Shown: one piece after another, positions 3,737 to 25,175 of the stretch
Numbering within the stretch: position 1 is the first letter of the stretch
Layout: every line of letters starts with the position of its first letter
Assembly (NCBI GenBank): GCA_964606035.1
Contig: CAZSFB010000002.1
Coordinates: 1 to 25,470 of the forward strand
Length of the DNA stretch: 25,470 bases
Reading direction: 5' to 3'
Source: an uncultured bacterium
GTDB taxonomy: Bacteria > JAGRBM01 > JAHCIT01
The notes under the pieces: model-generated
Seen by the model: only the letters and a program-made list of their open reading frames with translations
What the model was told of the DNA's origin: nothing
Database searches by the model: none
Position numbers and translations under genes: made by a program

Positions 3737-6217
3737 ATGTCCGAAAGCCCGATTCAAAGTATATCCCGGAACTGGACTGCCCTGGTTCACCGGCATCCGG
3801 GAAAGATTTTTCTGCTGGTCCTGGGAGTGACCCTCTTAGCCGGATGGTACGCATCCGGGCTCAGGCTCAGGTCCGACTTTAAGGAATTGCTACCCCAGAC
3901 CTCGCAAGCCGTGAGGGACTATGACCGCTATCGCAACCGCATCGGCGGCACCGGCAGCTTCGTCATCGTCGTCGAGAACCAGAACTACGAAAAGGCCCGC
4001 GAATATGTGGATGCGGTCGTGTCGGCCCTTGAAGAGAAGGTTCCGCCTGGAATCATCCGCTATGTCGACTACCGGGTCACAGCCCAGAGGCAGTTTTTCG
4101 AGAAAAACAAATACCTCTTTGTCAGCGTGGAAGACCTCATCCATATCCACGACCGCCTGCAGACCAAGATCGAGTGGGAGATCAAGTGCAACAACCCGGC
4201 CTACTTCGACCTTGAAGGTGAATGCGAGACCGATCCAAAGTTTGACCTTTCAGACATAGAAAAGCGGTATTCCGGCCAGGGAAAGCGATACACCCACTAC
4301 CGGGATGACTATTACACCTCCGAGGAAGGCGACCTGATAGCGGTCCTCGTGAAACCCGCCGCCGACGGTGCCAAACTCACGGAAGTCGCCAGATTCCTGA
4401 AAGTCGTCGACCCAGTCATCCGGTCGGTCAATCCAGCCTCGTTCGACCCGTCAATCCACGTCCAGTACACGGGCGCGTTTATTGGTCCGTACGAAGAGTA
4501 TAAGGTGATGCGGAGGGACGTGGCCTCAACTGCCGTCATCTGTGTCGTCCTCGTCCTTGCCTCGCTCGTCATCTACTACCGGCGTTTCCGGACCATCTAT
4601 TTCATTTTTCTCGGGACGATTTTCGGACTAGTCTGGATGTTTGCCTTCACAATGTGGTTGTACGGATTCCTGAACTCCGTTACGGCATTCCTCGGCACCA
4701 TTGTGCTGGGCAACGGGATCAACAACGCCATCGTATACGTGGCCAGGTACCTTGAAGAGCGGCGCAAGGGGAATCCGCTAGAGGACGCCCTGCGCACCTC
4801 CATGGAAACAACCGTCCGGGCGACGTTTGTGGCTGCATTCACCACAGCCGCCTCCTACGCGACCCTGTTCATGTCTGATATGCAGGGTCACAAGCAGTTC
4901 GGAGTGATCGGCTCCTTCGGCATGGCGGCCTGCTGGCTGGCCACCTATCTGGCCCTGCCACCCCTCATCTGCCTGATCGAGCGCGTCAAGCCGATCGACG
5001 CTGCCGAGTTCAGGGAAAGCCGGATAAAAGTCGGTGACTGGATCTATTCGGCCATCCGGAAGAAACCCGGAGCATGGATTGCCGGAGGTACGGTGCTGAC
5101 CATCACCGGCGCGGTATGCCTTGCCCTTTTTCTCAGAAATCCATGGGAAGAGGATTTCACGAAGATCCGTTCGGCCGCTTCCCTCAAGACCGGTCATCAG
5201 CATGCCAACCGGCTGATCATGGAAAAGATCTTTGATCTGTCACTGACCCCTGCAGTGATCCTCTTGGACGATCCCACCGACGCCGGCGCGGTCGCCGAAG
5301 AACTCGAACGCCGGCAATCGCTGCCCGGATCAATCATCGATACGGTCAAATACGCCGGCAACATCCTGCCGGATCAGCAGGAGGAAAAGCTTGAAATATT
5401 GGGGCGGATCCGGAATCTGCTCGAAGGGCAGGCCCTCAGGTTCCTTTCAGCGGAGCAGCGGAAAGAGGTCCAGCGGATCAGGGAATCCATCGAGCTGACC
5501 CCTATTGGACTTGAGGACATTCCCGAGGAAGTCGTCCGGAATTTCCGTGAAAAGGACGGCAGCCTGGACAAGGTGATGTATGTTTTCCCGGATAACCGCC
5601 GGGAACTGTCACAGAAAGCCAACCTTCAGGCGTTTGTGGAAGCCACCCGTGAGATTCAGCTTCCTGATGGCCGCACGATTACTTCAGCCAGCGAGCAGAC
5701 GCTGATTCTCGATACCATCAACCTGACGATCGCGACCGCGCCACGTGTCATACTATTTGCCTGGGTGGCCGTCCTGCTTCTGGTCTGGATCTCATTCCCT
5801 TCACTCAGGGCCACATTCACCCTCATGCTCACGCTGACCGCGTCGCTATTGATGGTTTTCATGGGGTTCTATGGGCTTGACCAGAAACTGACCTTCTTCA
5901 ACTTCATCGCCCTGCCGCTCACCATCGGAATCGGCATCGACTACGGATCGAACATATACAGCCGCTACCAGCTTGACGGCGAAGGTTCTATTCGGTCCGT
6001 GCTTCGGACGACCGGCGGTGCAGTCATCCTCTGCTCGGTGACAACCCTGATCGGCTATCTGTCCCTCCTGGTCGCCAATAACCTGATGCTTGTCTACTTC
6101 GGCTGGCTCTGCCTGATTGGCGAAGTAACAACGGTTTTTACCGCTATCGTCTTTTTGCCAGCTTTCCTACTCTGGAGGGAAAGAAAACTGACTGGAATCA
6201 GCCCTTCTGGCGGCTGA
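3737..6217 (+). CDS. MMPL/RND-family lipid transporter (two MMPL repeats)
   Basis: 826 aa. One N-terminal TM, a large loop, 5 TMs, then the architecture repeats. 'GIGIDYG' RND/MMPL motif in the second half and 'GNGINNA' in the first. Confidence 0.9.
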   Translation: MSESPIQSISRNWTALVHRHPGKIFLLVLGVTLLAGWYASGLRLRSDFKELLPQTSQAVRDYDRYRNRIGGTGSFVIVVENQNYEKAREYVDAVVSALEEKVPPGIIRYVDYRVTAQRQFFEKNKYLFVSVEDLIHIHDRLQTKIEWEIKCNNPAYFDLEGECETDPKFDLSDIEKRYSGQGKRYTHYRDDYYTSEEGDLIAVLVKPAADGAKLTEVARFLKVVDPVIRSVNPASFDPSIHVQYTGAFIGPYEEYKVMRRDVASTAVICVVLVLASLVIYYRRFRTIYFIFLGTIFGLVWMFAFTMWLYGFLNSVTAFLGTIVLGNGINNAIVYVARYLEERRKGNPLEDALRTSMETTVRATFVAAFTTAASYATLFMSDMQGHKQFGVIGSFGMAACWLATYLALPPLICLIERVKPIDAAEFRESRIKVGDWIYSAIRKKPGAWIAGGTVLTITGAVCLALFLRNPWEEDFTKIRSAASLKTGHQHANRLIMEKIFDLSLTPAVILLDDPTDAGAVAEELERRQSLPGSIIDTVKYAGNILPDQQEEKLEILGRIRNLLEGQALRFLSAEQRKEVQRIRESIELTPIGLEDIPEEVVRNFREKDGSLDKVMYVFPDNRRELSQKANLQAFVEATREIQLPDGRTITSASEQTLILDTINLTIATAPRVILFAWVAVLLLVWISFPSLRATFTLMLTLTASLLMVFMGFYGLDQKLTFFNFIALPLTIGIGIDYGSNIYSRYQLDGEGSIRSVLRTTGGAVILCSVTTLIGYLSLLVANNLMLVYFGWLCLIGEVTTVFTAIVFLPAFLLWRERKLTGISPSGG

Positions 6218-6313: not shown

Positions 6314-8155
6314 ATGGAACTTCAACGCGCTGTATTTGGCCTGTGGAATGGTGGACATTTTCTCCACTTTGGCGAGGATATCGGCGCCCAGCGTCTGAAG
6401 GACCTGATCCGCCGGTCGTATGACCTTGGTATCCGCACGTTCGTCACGGCCGATGTGTACGGCGAGGGCGAAGCCGACACGATTGCCGGGGAAGTGCTGA
6501 GTGCCTATCCGCGCGACAGTTATTGCCTCGTGGGCGGGATCGGCCACGATTTTGTCAAGGGTGTCCGGCAAGGAGAGAAGGGATACCCCCGCTTCACCGA
6601 TCCTGCGCTCCGCACGGCTTCGGAGTTCAGGGACTATATACAGAGCGCCGTGGACAGCTCTCTTAAACGGTGCCGGACAGACCACTTCGACCTGCTGTTC
6701 CTGCACAACCCGGATCACACCGGTTACACCAGCCCCGCCATCTGGGATTCGCTCGCTGCGGTCAAGGCTTCAGGCAAAGCCCGGATGCTCGGCCTCGCCC
6801 CCGGCCCTGCCAATGGTTTCACCCTCGATATCATCAACTGCTTTGAGAAATACGGCGACAGGATTGACTGGGCCATGATCATCCTGAATCCACTGGAGCC
6901 CTGGCCGGGGAGTTATTGCTTCAAGGCCGCCAAGCAGCACAACATCAAGGTCCTGACCCGCGTGGTGGACTATGGCGGATTGTTCCACGGCTATATCCGG
7001 CCGGGACACCGGTTCTCCCGGTCCGATCATCGGGCCTTCCGCCCTGCCGGCTGGGTGGAAGAAGGGCTGAAGAAAGTCGACCTGATGCGGCCGATTGCGG
7101 AGCGCCACAACCTTTCCCTGCTCCAGTTTGCTTGCCAGTGGACTCTCGGCCATGAGCCGGTGGAGGCCTGTGTACCGACCTTGCTCCAGGAGGCCGGTCC
7201 TGATGCACGGCCTATCGAGAGCCAGCTTGAGGACCTTTCCAAGCTGCCTGAAAAGAAGCTTCTTTCCCCGGAAGAAGTCCGCGAAGTCACCGCCATCGGG
7301 GACAACAAGGGCTGCATGTCCCTGAAGGGAGGCTCCCGGCAGTACAACGGACCGCCGCAGGCCGATCAGTGGGCGATGACCCCTGAGCTTGAGGCTGTTG
7401 CCAAACGATGGGGATTCGAGCCGGACCGGGATTTCTACTTCGCACACGACCCCCGAGACATGCGCGAACGGGGCATGCCAGCCCGAGGCATCCCACAACT
7501 CATGGACCGCCGTCTCTATGTGCAGCTCCAGTGCTTTACCGGAGCCAACGGCACCGGACCGCTGGCGGAGGCACTCAAGAAAAGTGGTCTTGAGTCCGTC
7601 CTGTACATCAGTGCGAATGACCCTCACGGTGTCGGTGTAATTATTATCAGCGAGGACGAAAATACGTTCGTCACCCAGTCACGCGATCTGTTCAACAGCG
7701 AGCCGTTCTCGAAACTCACTCTCCTCCGCGAGTATACCATGTTCGGCCGCACCTACGGTTCTGGCCGGGAAGCCGATCTCGAGGATTGGCTGCTCCGCCA
7801 TGCACGGCGGAACGCCATGAACGAGGAAAGCCCCTGGGCAATCTGGTATCCGCTCCGCCGCAAGGGTGCATTCTACAAGCTTCCGGAAAGCGAGCAGGGA
7901 AAAATCCTGTTTGAACACGGGGTGATCGGTCGCAACTACGGAGCGGCCGGCCTTGCAAACGATATCCGGCTTGAAAGTTTCGGGATTGATTCCGATGACA
8001 ATGAGTTCGTCATCGGTCTGGTTGGTCCCAGACTCCAGCCGCTCTCGAGGCTGATCAAGGACATGCGATCAACAACCCAGACAGCGGAATACATGGATAA
8101 ACTGGGACCGTTCTTTGTTGGCAAAAAAGTCTGGCAGTCAGGTTACAGGGGCTAA
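6314..8155 (+). CDS. Aldo/keto-reductase-fold domain fused to a chlorite dismutase/coproheme decarboxylase (Cld/ChdC)-fold domain
   Basis: aa 1-~375 are AKR-like ('GIRTFVTADVYG', 'SLKRCRTDHFDLLFLHNPD', 'KARMLG', 'LLQFACQWTL'). aa ~383-613 are Cld/ChdC-like ('WYPLRRKGAFYKLPESEQGKILFEHGVIGR', 'FGIDSDDNEFVIGL'). No stop between the domains. Confidence 0.82.
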   Translation: MELQRAVFGLWNGGHFLHFGEDIGAQRLKDLIRRSYDLGIRTFVTADVYGEGEADTIAGEVLSAYPRDSYCLVGGIGHDFVKGVRQGEKGYPRFTDPALRTASEFRDYIQSAVDSSLKRCRTDHFDLLFLHNPDHTGYTSPAIWDSLAAVKASGKARMLGLAPGPANGFTLDIINCFEKYGDRIDWAMIILNPLEPWPGSYCFKAAKQHNIKVLTRVVDYGGLFHGYIRPGHRFSRSDHRAFRPAGWVEEGLKKVDLMRPIAERHNLSLLQFACQWTLGHEPVEACVPTLLQEAGPDARPIESQLEDLSKLPEKKLLSPEEVREVTAIGDNKGCMSLKGGSRQYNGPPQADQWAMTPELEAVAKRWGFEPDRDFYFAHDPRDMRERGMPARGIPQLMDRRLYVQLQCFTGANGTGPLAEALKKSGLESVLYISANDPHGVGVIIISEDENTFVTQSRDLFNSEPFSKLTLLREYTMFGRTYGSGREADLEDWLLRHARRNAMNEESPWAIWYPLRRKGAFYKLPESEQGKILFEHGVIGRNYGAAGLANDIRLESFGIDSDDNEFVIGLVGPRLQPLSRLIKDMRSTTQTAEYMDKLGPFFVGKKVWQSGYRG

Positions 8156-8208: not shown

Positions 8209-9678
8209 ATGCCGACTTATGGCCTTGCGCCCATCCATCCCGTCACGAAGAACGAGATACTCACATTCAACCGCTGGGAAGTTTCCCTTGCCAGGGACCG
8301 GGCCCTTCGGCCCCACCGGCTCTCGCCAATCCAGTACGACCAAGTCAGGTACCTGATCAACTTCGCACGTCTCACCCGATTCCGGCCGGGCTGCGCCGGC
8401 AGGATCGGTCAGATGACATCCATCCGGCATGATGTTGACCTGACCCAGGAGCTCACCGTTTTCCGCACACGTGTGCACCGGGTCCTCTCGGGTGCCTTTT
8501 CCGGCAGCTACATCAGCTACCACCAGCTTCTCAATGGCGTCCTGCGCATCTGGCCTGATCTCGTCAATATCCGCAGGCAGGTCATCACGCAGCATGGAGA
8601 TGAAATGACCGAGGAGGAACTGGATGCCGAGGTCTGCCGAAAGACCTGGGTCAGCGTTGCCGGGGGCGGCGGTGGTGCCGGGTATGTGTACATTGGCGCT
8701 TATGCTGAAATGAACGATGCGGGCCTTGAGCCGGGATATATTGTCGGGTCGTCCATCGGATCGATCATGGGACTGTTCCGGGCCCGCGACGTAAAGCCGG
8801 ATTTCCAGCGCATGCTTGATCTGGCCTATGCAATGAAATGGGACAATATTTTCCGGGCGATCAGCGTGAAGCGCCGTTATGGTCTTCCGGGGCTGCTGCG
8901 GCTTTTCCTCAGGGCAGGCATCAGCTCATTCTTCACCAAACCCGACGGTGCGCCCATGCGGCTCACGGATTTAGGCATCCCCTACGAAGCTGTCGTGGCC
9001 GGGATTCCCAAGGGCGCGCTCCGCGAATCCATAGACGAGTTCGAGCAGCACCTGCATCCCTTTTCACACAAAGTTCCTGCGTGGCAGCTGCGGGCCAATG
9101 TGGCCAAGCAGCTTATCAAGCTCGTCGCCTACATGAACCCTTTGCTCTGCAAGGAGCTCACCATTGGTGCGGACGAGACAACACGAGAATTTGATGCCGT
9201 GGATGCCGCCGGTTTCTCCTCTGCGGTGCCGGGCATCCTTCATTATGACGTGACACGGGACGACCCGCACATGCATGACATCCTGTCCGAGCTCATGCGA
9301 CGGGAAGAGCTGGCGGCACTGGTGGACGGAGGTGTTGCCAACAATGTGGCCTGCCGGACCGCCTTCCTGAGGGTTCTGGATGGCAATATCGGCACACGGA
9401 ATGTCTTTATCCTCGGCTATGACTGCTTCGCGCCAAAATATACCCAGGACCTCTACCTTCATGGGATCATGCGGATTATCCAATTACAGGTGGCCTTAAA
9501 CCGGCCATTTTCGGGCACGGTGATCGAATTCCCAAAAACCCTCTCGCCGCTCAACCTTGTTCCGGCCCGCTCCCAGATCGATTGGGCCGTGAGCGAAGGA
9601 CGGCGGGTCATGCGCAAGGAAATGCCCTGGATCCGGATCCTGATGAGCCCGGTGGAACGTGGCCAGCTCGGCCTGTAG
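8209..9678 (+). CDS. Patatin-like phospholipase
   Basis: Glycine-rich 'GGGGGAG' oxyanion loop, nucleophile elbow 'GSSIG' (GxSxG) and 'DGG' catalytic Asp motif, in the correct order. Confidence 0.9.
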   Translation: MPTYGLAPIHPVTKNEILTFNRWEVSLARDRALRPHRLSPIQYDQVRYLINFARLTRFRPGCAGRIGQMTSIRHDVDLTQELTVFRTRVHRVLSGAFSGSYISYHQLLNGVLRIWPDLVNIRRQVITQHGDEMTEEELDAEVCRKTWVSVAGGGGGAGYVYIGAYAEMNDAGLEPGYIVGSSIGSIMGLFRARDVKPDFQRMLDLAYAMKWDNIFRAISVKRRYGLPGLLRLFLRAGISSFFTKPDGAPMRLTDLGIPYEAVVAGIPKGALRESIDEFEQHLHPFSHKVPAWQLRANVAKQLIKLVAYMNPLLCKELTIGADETTREFDAVDAAGFSSAVPGILHYDVTRDDPHMHDILSELMRREELAALVDGGVANNVACRTAFLRVLDGNIGTRNVFILGYDCFAPKYTQDLYLHGIMRIIQLQVALNRPFSGTVIEFPKTLSPLNLVPARSQIDWAVSEGRRVMRKEMPWIRILMSPVERGQLGL

Positions 9679-13421: not shown

Positions 13422-14033
13422 ATGACCATGAAACTGTATTATGCACCCCGCACCCGCTCGAGCCGCGTCCGCTGGATCCTGGAAGAGGCCGGAATCCCCT
13501 ACGAATTGGAACGCATTGACATGGCCGCAGGGGGCCATAAAAAGCCCGAATATCTATCCGTGCACCCCCTGGGTTCGGTACCAGCTTTCAAGGACGGCGA
13601 CCGCACCCTGATCGAATCCGCAGCCATCTGCATGTATATCGCGGACAAGTTCCCCGAAAAGAAACTGGCGCCGGCTCCCGGAACTCTCGAGCGCGGGGAG
13701 TATTACCAGTGGATCATGTATGGCATGGCAACGATGGAGCCACCAGTCGCCACAGTATTCATGCAGACCGTCATGCTGCCGCCGGAGAAGCGAAATCCGC
13801 ATGTGCTTGACGAGGCCAAAACGAGATACAAAACGGTTCTGGATGTCCTTCAGAATGGGCTCAAGGGGAAAGAGTTCATCGCGGGTGGTCAGTTCTCAGT
13901 GGCAGACGTGATTATCGCCTCGATCCTGTCGTGGTCGAAAGCGCTCGGCCTGCTGGAACATCACCCGGATCTGGTCAACTACAGCAAGGCGATGACCTCG
14001 CGTCCGGCCTTCAAGCGGGCGATAGCCGACTGA
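13422..14033 (+). CDS. Glutathione S-transferase family protein
   Basis: 'KLYYAPRTRSSRVRWILEE', 'HPLGSVP', 'LIESAAICMY', 'FSVADV', 'RPAF'. 203 aa. Confidence 0.95.
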   Translation: MTMKLYYAPRTRSSRVRWILEEAGIPYELERIDMAAGGHKKPEYLSVHPLGSVPAFKDGDRTLIESAAICMYIADKFPEKKLAPAPGTLERGEYYQWIMYGMATMEPPVATVFMQTVMLPPEKRNPHVLDEAKTRYKTVLDVLQNGLKGKEFIAGGQFSVADVIIASILSWSKALGLLEHHPDLVNYSKAMTSRPAFKRAIAD

Positions 14034-14046
14034 CCGTTCCCGGTTC

Positions 14047-15465
14047 CTAGAGCAGGTTCGCGGATTTCTCCGCGAGCTCAGACCGTTCCCCCTGCGTGAG
14101 CACCATGGCGCCGGCGATCTGTTGGCCACGGAACTTTTCTATCACATACGTGAGGCCGTTGGACCGCGAATCCACATAGGGATTGTCAATCTGGTAGGGA
14201 TCGCCCGTCAGGACAATCTTGGTCCCCTCACCGGCCCGGGTCAGGATCGTCTTGATCTCGTGGGGTGTCAGGTTCTGGGCCTCGTCCACGATGATAAACT
14301 GGTGGGGGATGGTCCGCCCGCGGATGTAGGTCAGCGGCTCTATTTCCAGTATCCCCAGGTCAATCAGGTCCTGGTACCGGCGTCTCTTGTGCGCCCCTCG
14401 TCCGTATTCCGAACCCCGGCGGCCGCTCTGCGGGGTCTCCGAGTCGGCCGACAGCAGGTATTCAATATTGTCGAAGATTGGCTGCATCCACGGCTTCAGC
14501 TTTTCCTCTACATCGCCGGGGAGGTACCCCAAGTCCCGGCCCAACGGAAAGATCGGCCTCGACACCAGAAGTTTCTGGTACCGGTGCTCGTCCGCGGTCC
14601 GCATCAGCGCACAGGCGATGGCGAGAAGCGTTTTTCCGGTACCGGCCTTGCCGACCAGCGTCACCAGCGGAATGCGGTCGTCCAGCAGCAGGTCCATGGC
14701 GAACACCTGCTCCCGGTTCCGGGGCCTGACGCCCCAGATCGCCTCCTTGGGAGGCTTGACCAGGAACAGCCCACTGGTCCCGTTCTCGCGGTGCCGTGCC
14801 AGCGCAGAGTGGCTCGGGACATATCGGTCCACGAGGACAATACATTCGTTCGCCTCCAGCGGAGGCTCACCCTCCCCCGGGGTGAACTGCATCTGCCCCT
14901 CCCGATAAATACGGTCAATGACATCCGGCTCGACCTCGACGGTCCGCAGATGGCGGTACAGGTCATCCAGATTCCGCTCGGGTCCCGTGTGGTAGTCCAC
15001 TGCCTTGAGGCCCAGCGCATCGGCCTTAATCCTCAGGTTCACGTCACGAGAGACCACCCATACCTCAGGGCGCACATTCGAGAACAATCCGCCCTCAGGC
15101 CCCAGCAGTTTCCCGATCAGGTTCCCCTGCTGGATGGATAGTGCCACCGACAGGATACGGTTGTCCGCCTTGTGGCTGTCCAGATCATCCGGCAGCAGCC
15201 GGAGATCGGTCTCAAACCCCACGGCAACAACCAGCTTGCCGCCACCTTCGAGATCCACGCCCTTTGATAGGAGCCCCTTGGACCGGAGACTGTCCAGATA
15301 GCGCATGACCATGCGGGCGTTGCGACCAAGCTCGGTCTGGTCCCGCTTGAACGTGTCCAGTTCCTCAAGAACCGTAATCGGCACTACCACATATTCTGAC
15401 GAGAACTTCGAGATGCACTGGGGATCAAAAAGAAGGACGTTCGTATCAATGACGTAACACTTCAA
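14047..15465 (-). CDS. PIN-PhoH (PhoH2/YlaK-like) protein
   Basis: PIN motifs 'YVIDTNVLL', 'EELD', 'DNRIL', 'SRDVNLRIKA'. PhoH ATPase motifs 'GKAGTGKT', 'RGRT', 'DEAQN', 'GDPYQID'. TTG at 15465 has GGAGG 10 nt upstream (ORF-track start 15504). Confidence 0.93.
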   Translation of the reverse strand: MKCYVIDTNVLLFDPQCISKFSSEYVVVPITVLEELDTFKRDQTELGRNARMVMRYLDSLRSKGLLSKGVDLEGGGKLVVAVGFETDLRLLPDDLDSHKADNRILSVALSIQQGNLIGKLLGPEGGLFSNVRPEVWVVSRDVNLRIKADALGLKAVDYHTGPERNLDDLYRHLRTVEVEPDVIDRIYREGQMQFTPGEGEPPLEANECIVLVDRYVPSHSALARHRENGTSGLFLVKPPKEAIWGVRPRNREQVFAMDLLLDDRIPLVTLVGKAGTGKTLLAIACALMRTADEHRYQKLLVSRPIFPLGRDLGYLPGDVEEKLKPWMQPIFDNIEYLLSADSETPQSGRRGSEYGRGAHKRRRYQDLIDLGILEIEPLTYIRGRTIPHQFIIVDEAQNLTPHEIKTILTRAGEGTKIVLTGDPYQIDNPYVDSRSNGLTYVIEKFRGQQIAGAMVLTQGERSELAEKSANLL

Positions 15466-15546
15466 AAGTCTGAAACCTCCGCCGCCGTCAGCATCCCTTC
15501 GCATTCACCAATGCTGCGAGACTGGAACTGCCCGCAAGCGGCCTGT

Positions 15547-16203
15547 TCATCCCTGAACACCCACGCTGTCGAACAGTTTCCGGTAAACACTGACCGGCTG
15601 CACTCCTAAAGCCCTCAGCCCCCCGGCAAGAATCGTCGGTACCCCGGTGACCAGTTCGTCGTAACCAGCCTCCCGGTTCGCCTCAACCGCATCAAAATGG
15701 ACGCGATCCTCAAGGACCTGGCACATGCGCCCCGCATCCGCACCGGCGTCCCGGGCCAGATCAACCAGCACGGCCCAGTTTCCGATATCGGCTCCATTGA
15801 TGAAATATGCGTCGAAAACATTGCGGCGGAACCGCTCCGCCAGCCCGTTCTGCCCCAGTTCCCAAGCCGCCTCCAGAGCCAGATGCGTGTTCGGAATCAC
15901 CGGGGGAGGATTGATGGTAATGGAATATTCCGCTGCTGTTTTTGCGACTGCGTTCCATATCCCGGACAGCACCCCTCCACCAGCCTGCCCCGGCCGGATT
16001 CCGGCCTCGGGGATTTCAGGATGAAGCTCGAATCCGGTCCAGTAGATATCGAACCGGTAGTCATCTCGCAGCCGGTCCAGCTGCTTCTCGGCGAGGAAAC
16101 AGTAGGGACAGAGAAAATCCGAATAGATGCGGAGCGGAATCGGCTTCGTCACTACTCTGCCATTCTTCGGGCCATGCCACCCCCGAAGCTGCTGTTTGGA
16201 CAA
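15547..16203 (-). CDS. DsbA-family oxidoreductase (FrnE/HCCA-isomerase-like)
   Basis: 'IYSDFLCPYC' CxxC, 'FELHPE', 'PNTHLA' and 'GVPT' cis-Pro loop. Start uncertain (TTG 16203 or GTG 16152). Confidence 0.9.
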   Translation of the reverse strand: MSKQQLRGWHGPKNGRVVTKPIPLRIYSDFLCPYCFLAEKQLDRLRDDYRFDIYWTGFELHPEIPEAGIRPGQAGGGVLSGIWNAVAKTAAEYSITINPPPVIPNTHLALEAAWELGQNGLAERFRRNVFDAYFINGADIGNWAVLVDLARDAGADAGRMCQVLEDRVHFDAVEANREAGYDELVTGVPTILAGGLRALGVQPVSVYRKLFDSVGVQG

Positions 16204-22602: not shown

Positions 22603-22902
22603 ATGAGCAATGTGCTAACCTCCGGCGCTGTCATGCCGGTCTACCAGCAGAACCTCGACATCGCCTGGCGGGAAGTGGACCATGAAGCTGTACTGGTTGA
22701 TCCCGTCGCCCGCATGCTCAGAGTCTTGAACCCCGCAGGCACATTCCTCTGGAGTGCCATGGCGGTCCCTTCAACTCCGGAGGAACTGGCCGGACAGCTT
22801 TCACGGGAGTTCGGTATCGATACGGAAACCGCCCGCAAGGATGTGGATGCCTTCCTCCGGGTCCTTCTGGAACGCAAACTGGTCCGCGAGGTCACTCCCT
22901 GA
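22603..22902 (+). CDS. PqqD-family protein / RiPP recognition element
   Basis: Beta-strands 'IAWREVDHEAVLVD', then 'LNPAGTFLWSAM', 'EELAGQLSREFGID..TARKDVDAFLRVLLERKLV', which is the classic PqqD winged-helix pattern. Start uncertain (22591, 22603 or 22633). Confidence 0.9.
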   Translation: MSNVLTSGAVMPVYQQNLDIAWREVDHEAVLVDPVARMLRVLNPAGTFLWSAMAVPSTPEELAGQLSREFGIDTETARKDVDAFLRVLLERKLVREVTP

Positions 22903-22903
22903 C

Positions 22904-23353
22904 ATGGCGTCCAGACCGGAAATGCTCAAGGCGGTCGGAGACATTCTCCGGGAAGAAGTCATCCGCCGCGGCAGGCTCAACTTCAAGGTGACGGGAAAAT
23001 CCATGGCGCCGCTGCTCAGACCCGGCGACATGGTGACCGTGGAAAGGATCCGGCAGAGATGGCGGCTCATGCCGGGGGACTTGGTAGTCCTCTCCAATGA
23101 TGGCCCGGTTATCGTCCATCATTTCCTCTACTGGACCCTCGCCGATGGCGAAATCCACTTGCGTACGGTGGGCCGGAACAGTAAGGCGCTGGACCAGTTG
23201 TGGCCCCGCCGGTCACTGATCGGGCGTGTTACCCTGCGGGAACGCGGCCAGGTAAACCTCGAGGGACCCACTGCGCCGCTCTGGCTGGCCAGTTCCCTGT
23301 TCACGGCCATGGGCGGAATCATCCAATCCCGACTGGAGCGTCTGCTCAGGTGA
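22904..23353 (+). CDS. S24/S26-family peptidase
   Basis: 'FKVTGKSMAPLLRPGD' Ser motif, 'PGDLVV', 'IVHH', 'GRV' and a C-terminal amphipathic helix. ATG lies 1 nt after the PqqD stop. Confidence 0.82.
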   Translation: MASRPEMLKAVGDILREEVIRRGRLNFKVTGKSMAPLLRPGDMVTVERIRQRWRLMPGDLVVLSNDGPVIVHHFLYWTLADGEIHLRTVGRNSKALDQLWPRRSLIGRVTLRERGQVNLEGPTAPLWLASSLFTAMGGIIQSRLERLLR

Positions 23354-24171
23354 CCGATAATCTTCGACCGACTCTGGCTGGGCACCCTTTCGACGTGGCG
23401 GCGGCCCCCCGCCTCATTGAAGCCATGAACCGGATACTGGGCCCCGGCGTGGAACCAACTGGACGCGCCTACCGGCTCATGATCGTCGAAAAACGGACAT
23501 TGAACTATTCGGACCCCTACAAGGTGGCCGTTTCGCGGCGGGAACACGGATTTTCAGCCGGATCGTCCGCCTTCCGTGCGGACATCGAGTTCCCCGGCCG
23601 CAATATCCGGATCGAGATTGCTCCTCCGCCGGAGCGCTCCAGCACGGACCGCGACAACGCACTGGAAAACGCCCTCCGTCTGGTCACTCAGTGGCTCGCA
23701 TGGGAGCACCGGGGTTTCATTCTGCATGCCTGCGCCTTCGTGAGAAAGTCCGGTGGTGCAGTGGTTGCTTTCGGTCCTTCCGGAGCCGGAAAAAGCACAT
23801 TGGCTCGCCGGGCGCTGGAAAGCGGACGCCCTGTACTCGGCGACGATCTCGTCATCGTACGCGTTGAAAAGGGAGACCTCTCGGTGGAAGGGACCCCATT
23901 CTCCGGGTCCACGCCCCGGATCCCGTTCACTGCCGGCAAACGTCCCGTGACCATGCTGGTTAGCCTAGAGAAGGGCCCGGAGGTGCGACTTATGTCACAG
24001 TCTCCGGCGGAAAGGCTCTCGGCGCTCATGGCCCAGATCCAGGGAATCCCCGACCGTTCCAAAACGGAAACAGATTCACTCATGGATGCCCTCATTCCTG
24101 CGATTGACAGGACACCCGGAGGCACACTGGTCTTTGATCTGACCGGAGACCTCTGGCAAACTCTGGACTAG
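23350..24171 (+). CDS. HPr-kinase-related P-loop kinase
   Basis: 'GFILHACAF', Walker A 'GPSGAGKST' and 'LGDD' acidic motif. GTG at 23350 overlaps the peptidase TGA (GTGA). Confidence 0.82.
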   Translation: MTDNLRPTLAGHPFDVAAAPRLIEAMNRILGPGVEPTGRAYRLMIVEKRTLNYSDPYKVAVSRREHGFSAGSSAFRADIEFPGRNIRIEIAPPPERSSTDRDNALENALRLVTQWLAWEHRGFILHACAFVRKSGGAVVAFGPSGAGKSTLARRALESGRPVLGDDLVIVRVEKGDLSVEGTPFSGSTPRIPFTAGKRPVTMLVSLEKGPEVRLMSQSPAERLSALMAQIQGIPDRSKTETDSLMDALIPAIDRTPGGTLVFDLTGDLWQTLD

Positions 24172-25175
24172 TGTCCACGTTCAATGAAATCCGCGACAGG
24201 ATGGTCGCGAACCACCGGTTCGTAACGACCCAGCTCGAGCTCACCTATCGGTGCAACTACCACTGTTTGCATTGCTACTGTGTGGAGCAGCCCGAACGCC
24301 CGGAACTTTCAACCGAAGCCTTCAAAAATGTCATTGACCAGCTCTACGGGCTGGGTTGCATGAACATCACGTTCACAGGTGGCGAGGCCATCATCCGGAA
24401 GGACTTTTTTGAGCTCGCCACCTACGCCCGCTCAAAACGTTTCGTCATCCGGCTGTTTTCGAACGGGCATCTGCTCGACGGCGGCCGGCTTGAAAACCTG
24501 CTGGAACTGAAACCCATCTCGGTTGATATTTCCCTCTACGGCGCCAGCGACAGGACCTACGCGGCCGTCACCGGTGACGGTGAGAGATACTCCCGTGTCA
24601 AGCGCAACATCGAGAAACTGGCAGAGCGGGGCCAGCGGGTGATTGTGAAAATCCCGCTGATGCACGAGAGTTATCACGATCTCGACCGGATGATCCGATG
24701 GTGCAGGGAAATCGGCGTTCCATATCTCACCGACGTTTGGATGACCCCGAAAGATGACGGCTCCGTAAAGCCCACCAATCACGCACTGACCGACGACGAA
24801 CTCCGGGATTTTTTCAGCCGCTACGGGACCCGTGCGAAAAACCTCGTCCGGCATGATGACGAGGCGATCTGCACGGCGGCCTGCTCCTCGCCGATTATCT
24901 CCCCGAACGGCGACGTGTTCGCCTGTACCCAGAACAAGTTGCCCGCCGGGAATGTGCTGAACCAGCCGCTCGCGGAAATCTGGAAGGATTCCCCGTGGCT
25001 CAGGGAGGTCCGGTCGGTGAAGTGGCACCGTTTCACCGAGTGCCACACCTGCGAGTTCAGGGAAACCTGCTTCATCTGCCCGGCCATCAGCCTGTACGAA
25101 AACGGCCGCCTGGAAGGCCCCAATAGCCATGCCTGCCGGGTCGCCCGGATCCGGCATGAGCTGGGCCAAGTCTGA
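24171..25175 (+). CDS. Radical SAM/SPASM-domain protein
   Basis: CxxxCxxC 'CNYHCLHC', 'TGGEA' and 'SLYG'. SPASM cysteines 'CTAAC....PNGDVFAC' and 'CHTCEFRETCFICP...C'. GTG overlaps the kinase TAG by 1 nt. Confidence 0.95.
   Translation: MSTFNEIRDRMVANHRFVTTQLELTYRCNYHCLHCYCVEQPERPELSTEAFKNVIDQLYGLGCMNITFTGGEAIIRKDFFELATYARSKRFVIRLFSNGHLLDGGRLENLLELKPISVDISLYGASDRTYAAVTGDGERYSRVKRNIEKLAERGQRVIVKIPLMHESYHDLDRMIRWCREIGVPYLTDVWMTPKDDGSVKPTNHALTDDELRDFFSRYGTRAKNLVRHDDEAICTAACSSPIISPNGDVFACTQNKLPAGNVLNQPLAEIWKDSPWLREVRSVKWHRFTECHTCEFRETCFICPAISLYENGRLEGPNSHACRVARIRHELGQV

Follow-up and report, generated by a model that had tools for sequence, protein, structure and literature searches.

A divergent aldo-keto reductase-like barrel fused to a coproheme decarboxylase-type domain in an uncultured bacterium

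The window (the whole stretch of DNA analysed here, 25,470 nucleotides of contig CAZSFB010000002.1, assembly GCA_964606035.1, from an uncultured bacterium) carries on its plus strand, at 6314..8155, a single open reading frame of 613 amino acids plus a stop, with an ATG start preceded by GAGG 9 nt upstream. The encoded protein joins a half with the aldo-keto reductase (AKR) fold to a half of the family that contains chlorite dismutase (Cld) and coproheme decarboxylase (ChdC, or HemQ). An original prediction, made from the sequence letters, had described one uninterrupted frame in which an AKR barrel runs into a Cld/ChdC domain near Met383; the coordinates were reproduced, Pfam returned both of the families it expected (PF00248 and PF06778), and the residues it singled out lie where it placed them (Met383 at nt 7460, Tyr512 in WYPLRR, His535 in EHG, and Asp550 of ANDIR at 7961-7963). 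The features of the gene are as follows.

6314..8155, plus strand: fusion gene, 613 aa (open reading frame; two Pfam domains; full-length orthologues at 50-99% identity; AlphaFold2 model)
6356..7180, plus strand: divergent AKR (beta/alpha)8 barrel, residues 15-289 (PF00248; best solved relative 1pyf)
6458..6460, plus strand: Tyr49, the retained AKR catalytic Tyr (aligned to IolS; invariant)
6704..6706, plus strand: His131, the retained AKR catalytic His, in an invariant H-N-P-D motif (alignment; invariant)
7181..7453, plus strand: C-terminal extension of the AKR half, residues 290-380 (structured, pLDDT 84-96; kept in AKR-only orthologues)
7454..8152, plus strand: complete ChdC/HemQ-type domain of two ferredoxin-like halves, residues 381-613 (AlphaFold2, Foldseek, PF06778)
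7847..7849, plus strand: Tyr512, counterpart of the catalytic Tyr of ChdC (Listeria monocytogenes Tyr147, Corynebacterium diphtheriae Tyr135; alignments; invariant)
7916..7918, plus strand: His535, counterpart of the proximal iron ligand (L. monocytogenes His174; alignments; invariant)
7961..7969, plus strand: Asp550-Ile551-Arg552, with Asp550 in the column of the Cld distal Arg and the Firmicute Gln187 (modelled strand 549-554)

The match to PF00248 (aldo/keto reductase) covers residues 15-289 (E 8.8e-26; 91.1 bits against a cut-off of 24), and that to PF06778 (chlorite dismutase family) covers residues 497-605 (E 6.9e-16; 58.9 bits against a cut-off of 25) and spans the second half of the Pfam model only. 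An AlphaFold2 model of the whole protein, built with 55 orthologues, has a pLDDT of 92.5 and a pTM of 0.87 with no disordered linker, and residues 381-613 modelled alone reach a pLDDT of 94.5. With Foldseek, this C-terminal model matched the ChdCs of Listeria, Corynebacterium, Geobacillus and Streptomyces over 220-248 columns (E on the order of 1e-12 to 1e-13, TM 0.66-0.73); when those of Thermus and Thermoplasma are included, the full-length ChdC matches range from E 1e-10 to 3e-13 and TM 0.66-0.75, and a Nitrospira chlorite dismutase ranked below the ChdC subunits. Because the model aligns along entire ChdC subunits, the C-terminal 233 residues are, as modelled, a complete two-lobed ChdC-type subunit and no half domain.

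The same fusion recurs well beyond this genome. In a search space of 5.8 billion proteins we found about 98 clusters of full-length fusions (590-680 aa, 50-99% identity), all with both Pfam domains, from Planctomycetota, Verrucomicrobiota, Gemmatimonadota, Latescibacterota, Bdellovibrionota, Omnitrophota, Sumerlaeota and Actinomycetota. Relatives of the ChdC half are encoded by at least 579 species, counted in assemblies representing one genome per species. Among the best 80 of these species, the ChdC half is fused to the AKR half in 15, and in the other 65 it is a protein of its own of 230-270 aa that starts at query residue 377-382, with no AKR gene within 8 kb on either side of these 65 stand-alone loci. 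Stand-alone ChdC proteins form more than 2,200 clusters, which the database names just "chlorite dismutase family protein". The AKR half likewise exists alone, as proteins of 378-384 aa that are 56-59% identical to residues 1-380, stop at query residue 379-382 and retain all of the family-invariant residues. Judged from these boundaries, each half is an autonomous family, and in the fusion the end of the first meets the start of the second.

One might suspect an error of assembly or gene calling that merged two neighbouring genes, given that the source is a fragmented metagenome-assembled genome (MAG) of 568 contigs, 84% complete. Since the same end-to-start fusion turns up in assemblies of separate projects, in about 98 clusters and in the genomes of 15 species, and covers at least six phyla, with a continuous frame and a junction that is modelled with confidence, such an artefact is excluded for practical purposes, and the fusion is genuine, as originally predicted.

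As separate genes, the two halves did not co-occur. Among 301 Verrucomicrobiota genomes, one had the fused form, two the AKR half only and 17 the ChdC half only, and none had both halves as separate genes, in a co-occurrence search that scored only four candidates per genome; an AKR-half orthologue was also found in none of 20 genomes with a stand-alone ChdC. We therefore rejected a Rosetta-stone co-occurrence of the separate halves, which shared no genome in these two sets. A split form with adjacent genes was rejected too, as no AKR lies by the stand-alone ChdC genes and no Cld-like gene follows the AKR-only genes, and a 444-aa neighbour of one AKR-only gene was dismissed as a partner because it is not conserved. 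In the tree of ChdC domains, fused and stand-alone forms are intermixed; a single clade of fused forms was rejected, as the tree forces at least two changes between the forms, with four in the most parsimonious reconstruction. The ChdC domain of the present protein is 53-61% identical to stand-alone proteins, fused and stand-alone domains have an identical set of invariant residues, and by these measures they are one family.

To place this family, residue correspondences were taken from hidden Markov model (HMM) alignments with a profile built from 41 ChdC domains. The profile matched the Thermus ChdC (1VDH) at E 1.6e-8 and also those of Geobacillus, Listeria and Corynebacterium, and the Nitrospira Cld at an E of only about 0.1. 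Tyr512 of the WYPLRR motif aligns with the catalytic Tyr147 of Listeria ChdC (FYPM), Arg516 with the basic Lys151, and His535 with the proximal ligand His174. The chain of a C. diphtheriae Y135A mutant scored 4-5 bits under the wild type in both searches, which fits an alignment of Y135 with Tyr512. Asp550 aligns with Gln187, the column of the Cld distal Arg, as the original prediction had concluded from a manual alignment. Arg552 lies two residues further on the same modelled strand (549-554), and Tyr512, His535, Asp550 and Arg552 are all invariant, in fused and stand-alone forms alike (55 fusions and 41 domains). We infer that Asp550 and Arg552 face the distal pocket, where they may form an acid-base pair for peroxide activation resembling that of DyP peroxidases.

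A functional chlorite dismutase that detoxifies chlorite would account for the PF06778 match, and Arg552 is only two residues beyond the canonical distal position. In Cld, the distal Arg is found 13 residues after the proximal His; here Ala548 is at +13 and the aligned column holds an invariant Asp, which makes chlorite dismutation by the fusion protein unlikely as far as alignment can tell. Together with the profile scores (ChdCs at E 1e-8, Nitrospira Cld at about 0.1) and the absence of a (per)chlorate reductase context from the window, this leaves a chlorite-detoxifying role very improbable indeed.

The C-terminal half shares with characterised ChdC/HemQ proteins (L. monocytogenes 5LOQ, C. 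diphtheriae 6XUC, Geobacillus 5T2K, Thermus 1VDH) the fold of the whole subunit, the proximal His, the catalytic Tyr in an F/W-Y-P motif, a basic residue (Arg516) at the Lys151 column, the lack of Arg in the Cld distal column, and stand-alone orthologues in hemE-cgoX-cpfC operons. It differs in the distal column, where an Asp, with an Arg after it and both of them invariant, replaces the Gln of Firmicutes, while actinobacterial ChdC has a His distal base located elsewhere in the sequence. It differs also in being fused to an AKR-like half of 380 residues in a genome without cpfC, cgoX or uroD. By sequence, the half belongs to a clade separate from the Firmicute and Actinobacterial HemQ equivalogs.

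The genomic context of the stand-alone orthologues is more telling. In Omnitrophota, an orthologue 58% identical to the ChdC half (P0327/L127) is the last gene of an operon with the order hemD-hemE, cgoX, cpfC, NAD_binding_10 and chdC; a Planctomycetales locus (L081) has the order chdC-hemDE-cgoX-cpfC, and a third locus (L068) has chdC followed by hemDE-cgoX, so that such orthologues come from three lineages (Omnitrophota, Planctomycetales and one uncultured lineage). The ChdC-family member is the sole PF06778 protein in 24 of the 24 genomes tested. Genomes with the stand-alone form encode a ferrochelatase in about 20 of 22 cases and a strong UroD in all 22, which adjoins the ferrochelatase in some. 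Because stand-alone orthologues sit in hemD/E-cgoX-cpfC operons, we conclude that the family is probably a coproheme decarboxylase clade, observed mainly in diderm, Gram-negative-type phyla; HemQ has already been placed in Acidobacteria and Planctomycetes (PMC5095920). The original prediction had proposed a heme or coproheme enzyme or sensor coupled to an NAD(P)H-binding module. Its Cld/ChdC part is borne out and narrowed here to coproheme decarboxylase; its NAD(P)H binding was an assumption only.

Several other genes accompany stand-alone members of this ChdC clade. In the Omnitrophota hem operon, a 278-aa NAD_binding_10/epimerase-like Rossmann protein (L127, 5158-5994) is encoded between cpfC, which it overlaps by 4 nt, and the ChdC orthologue, and is thus a second, independent nucleotide-binding protein beside this clade. 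At 14 Vicinamibacterales loci (e.g., L040, 8772-10250), an Nramp-type metal transporter gene directly follows chdC. The same holds for L126 (4163-8258), where in addition a 608-aa GMC-oxidoreductase-like flavoprotein, of a class able to make H2O2, is encoded 12 nt upstream of chdC. In Poribacteria, a putative DUF420-like membrane protein, so named from its sequence, lies just upstream of the stand-alone chdC (e.g., L062, 7397-7816), and on the downstream side are genes for two further membrane proteins, of about 240 and 560 aa, an arrangement conserved in 11-13 loci.

The N-terminal half is unquestionably an AKR-fold barrel. Its best solved relative is IolS/AKR11A (1pyf; 24% identity, Foldseek E 9e-18, TM 0.81 on the target), and it shares the (beta/alpha)8 barrel and the tetrad Tyr and His with AKRs of families 11, 14 and 6 (IolS/AKR11A 1PYF, YghZ/AKR14A1 and Kv-beta). 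The catalytic tetrad Asp-Tyr-Lys-His is incomplete, and only Tyr49 and His131 are kept, both invariant. The canonical Asp is replaced by Val44 (V/L/M/I across the 55 orthologues) and the canonical Lys by Gly75 (A/M/G/L). Among the nicotinamide-contact positions, Asn167 is kept, and the usual Ser and Gln columns hold Ala162 and Met188. With the canonical Asp and Lys gone family-wide and two of the three nicotinamide contacts changed, the NAD(P)H binding that had been predicted stays putative. The family has its own invariant set instead (D47, D55, H78, D79, R93, T95, D126, D238-H239-R240, R243, W247 and E293), and its 90-residue extension (290-380), which distinguishes it further from families 11, 14 and 6, is conserved with family-invariant G329, N331, K338, D351 and W353. 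Because of this large invariant set and the conserved extension, the AKR half is, on conservation, a non-canonical barrel with a real site of its own.

In the source genome, neither ferrochelatase (PF00762), UroD (PF01208) nor CgoX (TIGR00562) was found above cut-off, so the check for uroD, cgoX and cpfC that the original prediction had suggested came back empty; with none of the three, the siroheme (Ahb) route would be the one left to supply coproheme. An AhbC/NirJ1-like gene is present on contig C29 (520 and 478 bits), and the edge of contig C543 holds the C-terminal part of an AhbD-like gene, 71% identical to the copy of the closest relative. The genome also encodes ALAD (hemB) and a SUMT-HemD fusion (cobA-hemD) beside hemC, feeding precorrin-2 and siroheme, and c-type cytochromes on contig C62. 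Given these hem genes, the Ahb-like genes and the cytochromes, the organism appears to make tetrapyrroles and to need haem, with a visible route only via siroheme. Contig C62 (L110, 3214-10482) also holds a NirJ-like radical-SAM gene (TIGR04051, 345 bits) together with beta-propeller proteins, a MoxR/NorQ-like AAA ATPase and dihaem c-type cytochromes, a cluster that may be of the haem d1/cd1-nitrite-reductase type.

We extended the survey of haem-synthesis genes to 16 fusion genomes, i.e., the source genome and 15 others from at least six phyla, including a complete Latescibacterota chromosome. Ferrochelatase was detected in none of the 16, and ten had a full-length AhbC/NirJ1-like radical-SAM gene (405-531 bits) together with an AhbD-like gene. 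The two genes are side by side in four genomes (G022, G027, G030 and G031), and the two AhbD-like copies that were classified both matched TIGR04053 above its cut-off. We looked for AhbA/B beside AhbC/D and rejected that arrangement, as the neighbourhoods in G022 and G025 hold moaA, NnrS, nar genes, DUF2249 and PNPOx-like genes. A raw Fisher test of the fusion against the absence of ferrochelatase gives p of about 7e-9, a value that overstates independence.

In two NC10 (Methylomirabilota) genomes, G019 and G024, a stand-alone ChdC occurs together with AhbC/AhbD-like genes. Ferrochelatase is absent from G019 and present in G024 as fragments in several frames only, and the two genomes have 19-22 URO-D-family paralogues.

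In six of the 16 fusion genomes, ferrochelatase and AhbC/D-like genes are both absent, and no source of coproheme is evident:
G021, complete 5.7-Mb Latescibacterota chromosome
G028, G033, G034, G035 and G037, comprising two Verrucomicrobiales and three Actinomycetes MAGs
For these six, uptake of haem or coproheme, an unrecognised route, or a role of the fusion outside haem synthesis are all possible.

With moderate confidence, we propose that the fusion, with its AKR-like N-terminal half, is a ChdC whose substrate is coproheme derived from siroheme, and that it serves as an alternative to AhbD that uses oxygen or peroxide. The penultimate product of the siroheme route is coproheme, which is the substrate of ChdC. 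Coproheme (Fe-coproporphyrin III) would be supplied by the Ahb route via AhbC and bound by the C-terminal domain through His535. An oxidant, which is H2O2 in known ChdCs, would then react to form a radical at Tyr512, through which propionates 2 and 4 would become vinyl groups, yielding haem b. The fusion would thereby stand in for the radical-SAM haem synthase AhbD where oxygen or peroxide is used. ChdC is able to use H2O2 or FMN (flavin mononucleotide; FMN in vitro) as its acceptor, and in the coproporphyrin pathway the oxidant is assumed to be peroxide derived from HemY/CgoX. The siroheme route lacks a CgoX-like peroxide source, so a fused redox-type domain could fill this gap; it might instead receive the product, as proposed for the ABM domain of PitA, and we hold either role loosely.

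The closest physiological parallel is PitA, a ChdC-ABM fusion of the haloarchaeon Haloferax volcanii, which is required aerobically while AhbD is required anaerobically, with haem rescuing both defects (PMC5746218). In both systems a ChdC domain is fused to a second domain, coproheme comes or would come from the siroheme/Ahb route, and an AhbD-type enzyme is present. The PitA/AhbD division was shown genetically, and the likeness to it is physiological only. The partner is an N-terminal AKR-like TIM barrel here and a C-terminal ferredoxin-like ABM domain in PitA; PitA has a His-rich linker, whereas the present halves abut directly with no linker; and PitA is haloarchaeal, whereas the fusion is bacterial. 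Another ChdC joined to a second protein of haem metabolism is the HemH-HemQ fusion of Cutibacterium acnes, which historically served as a Rosetta-stone clue. Its partner is ferrochelatase, whereas the present fusion was found only in genomes without ferrochelatase (16 tested) and has a partner with no known role in haem synthesis. Already known are thus ChdC itself, the AKR fold and two ChdC fusions, with ferrochelatase in C. acnes and with the ABM domain in PitA. The literature searched yielded no description of an AKR-like::ChdC fusion, in line with the original statement that none was known to be characterised, and databases use generic labels for it.

Several observations weigh against siroheme-derived coproheme decarboxylation by the fusion. 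The ChdC half is just 14-21% identical to characterised ChdCs, and it misses the NCBIfam HemQ equivalogs by far (43 bits against a cut-off of 235 for NF042928 and 34.6 against 253 for NF008913). The AhbC-like and AhbD-like matches are under the cut-offs of TIGR04546 and TIGR04545 and could serve haem d1 or another pathway, and AhbA/B were not located in the source genome. No coproheme source is evident in the six genomes listed above. By the gene tree, the link between the fusion and the lack of ferrochelatase amounts to 2-4 phylogenetically independent contrasts, all in the expected direction and far from significance. Partnership of the halves is not shown to be obligate, as there are genomes with the ChdC half and no AKR half, and others with the AKR half and no relative of ChdC, which means that the AKR half is not an obligate ChdC subunit. 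Motifs of aa3/bd oxidase, catalase and Fe/Mn-superoxide dismutase were not found in the source genome, by a crude, uncontrolled motif scan of a genome 84% complete, and we count this as no evidence.

The six genomes without a coproheme source keep two other explanations alive. In one, which we consider unlikely, haem b stays in the Cld-like domain as a cofactor, and the domain performs peroxidase- or oxygenase-type chemistry on a small molecule, with the AKR half catalysing a neighbouring carbonyl/alcohol step and no part in haem synthesis. The invariant Asp550 and Arg552 near the distal position recall the Asp/Arg pair of DyP peroxidases (PMC7611857), and an AKR half that is an autonomous, conserved enzyme also found alone would suit such a role. 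However, the same residues are invariant in the stand-alone orthologues of hemD/E-cgoX-cpfC operons, the ChdC-specific Tyr is invariant as well, the AKR half is without the Lys and Asp needed for ordinary carbonyl reduction, and no conserved neighbour genes hint at a substrate. The other, which we regard as quite improbable, is that the Cld-like domain is a non-catalytic module for binding, storing or sensing haem or coproheme, which regulates the AKR half or hands the tetrapyrrole over. Cld-family proteins do bind haem weakly and reversibly, the haem of PitA is held by the second domain and not by the ChdC domain (a hand-over role has been proposed), and the six genomes may belong to haem auxotrophs. 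Yet the strict invariance of Tyr512, Asp550 and Arg552 exceeds the needs of binding alone, and the domain is orthologous to ChdCs encoded in operons.

Returning to the fusion as a coproheme decarboxylase of the siroheme route, our preferred guess for the AKR half is that it may supply or handle the oxidant or electron acceptor, or receive the product, where no CgoX makes H2O2 by ChdC. A bolder version, which we find rather doubtful, is that the AKR half makes ChdC self-sufficient in siroheme-route bacteria without CgoX, coupling a pyridine nucleotide or other redox molecule to oxidant generation or electron removal at the coproheme site.

The neighbouring genes at the locus itself are as follows.

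3737-6217, same strand, directly upstream of the fusion gene: 826-aa HpnN/MMPL/HAE3-type RND transporter (TIGR03480, 224 bits, below cut-off)
8209-9678, same strand, downstream of the fusion gene: patatin-like lipase

The trio of transporter, fusion and patatin is syntenic only in the closest relative (L016; fusion protein 87% identical). We rejected it as a functional unit because it is absent from the other 14 fused loci, where the neighbours are unrelated, and no conserved neighbours pointing to a substrate were seen at the fused loci examined. Further along the window, a cassette at 22754-25175 comprises an S24-peptidase-like gene (22754-23353), an HprK-related-kinase/ScmC-like gene (23200-24171) and a radical-SAM/SPASM gene (24171-25175), and looks like peptide maturation of the SCM/HprK type. 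The radical-SAM/SPASM gene was considered as AhbD and rejected, its best match being a mycofactocin-type maturase model (120 bits, below cut-off) and its neighbour an HprK-like gene. A PIN-PhoH fusion of the PhoH2 type is encoded on the minus strand (14047-15504), beside a GST (13422-14033) and a DsbA-like gene (15547-16203).

The genomic context supports annotation as coproheme decarboxylase for more than 2,000 clusters that currently go by the name "chlorite dismutase family protein", and a conserved AKR-like family lacking the tetrad Asp and Lys is defined. ChdC catalyses the final step of the coproporphyrin route, and its oxidant in vivo is disputed, with CgoX-derived H2O2, FMN and others under discussion. 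The fusion is a natural experiment on this question, as every carrier tested is without ferrochelatase and most have siroheme-route enzymes. If the AKR half does make ChdC self-sufficient, the fusion would reveal which oxidant or acceptor coproheme decarboxylase uses physiologically, a matter of long debate, and it would define an oxygen-tolerant hybrid route from siroheme through coproheme to haem in at least six bacterial phyla. If the proposed role of the fusion is true, the arrangement of an aerobic ChdC with an anaerobic AhbD, so far shown only in a haloarchaeon, would extend to bacteria, namely Planctomycetota, Sumerlaeota, Bdellovibrionota-like and other uncultured lineages. The hypothesis is that a peroxide-independent or self-supplied coproheme decarboxylase would complete the siroheme route.

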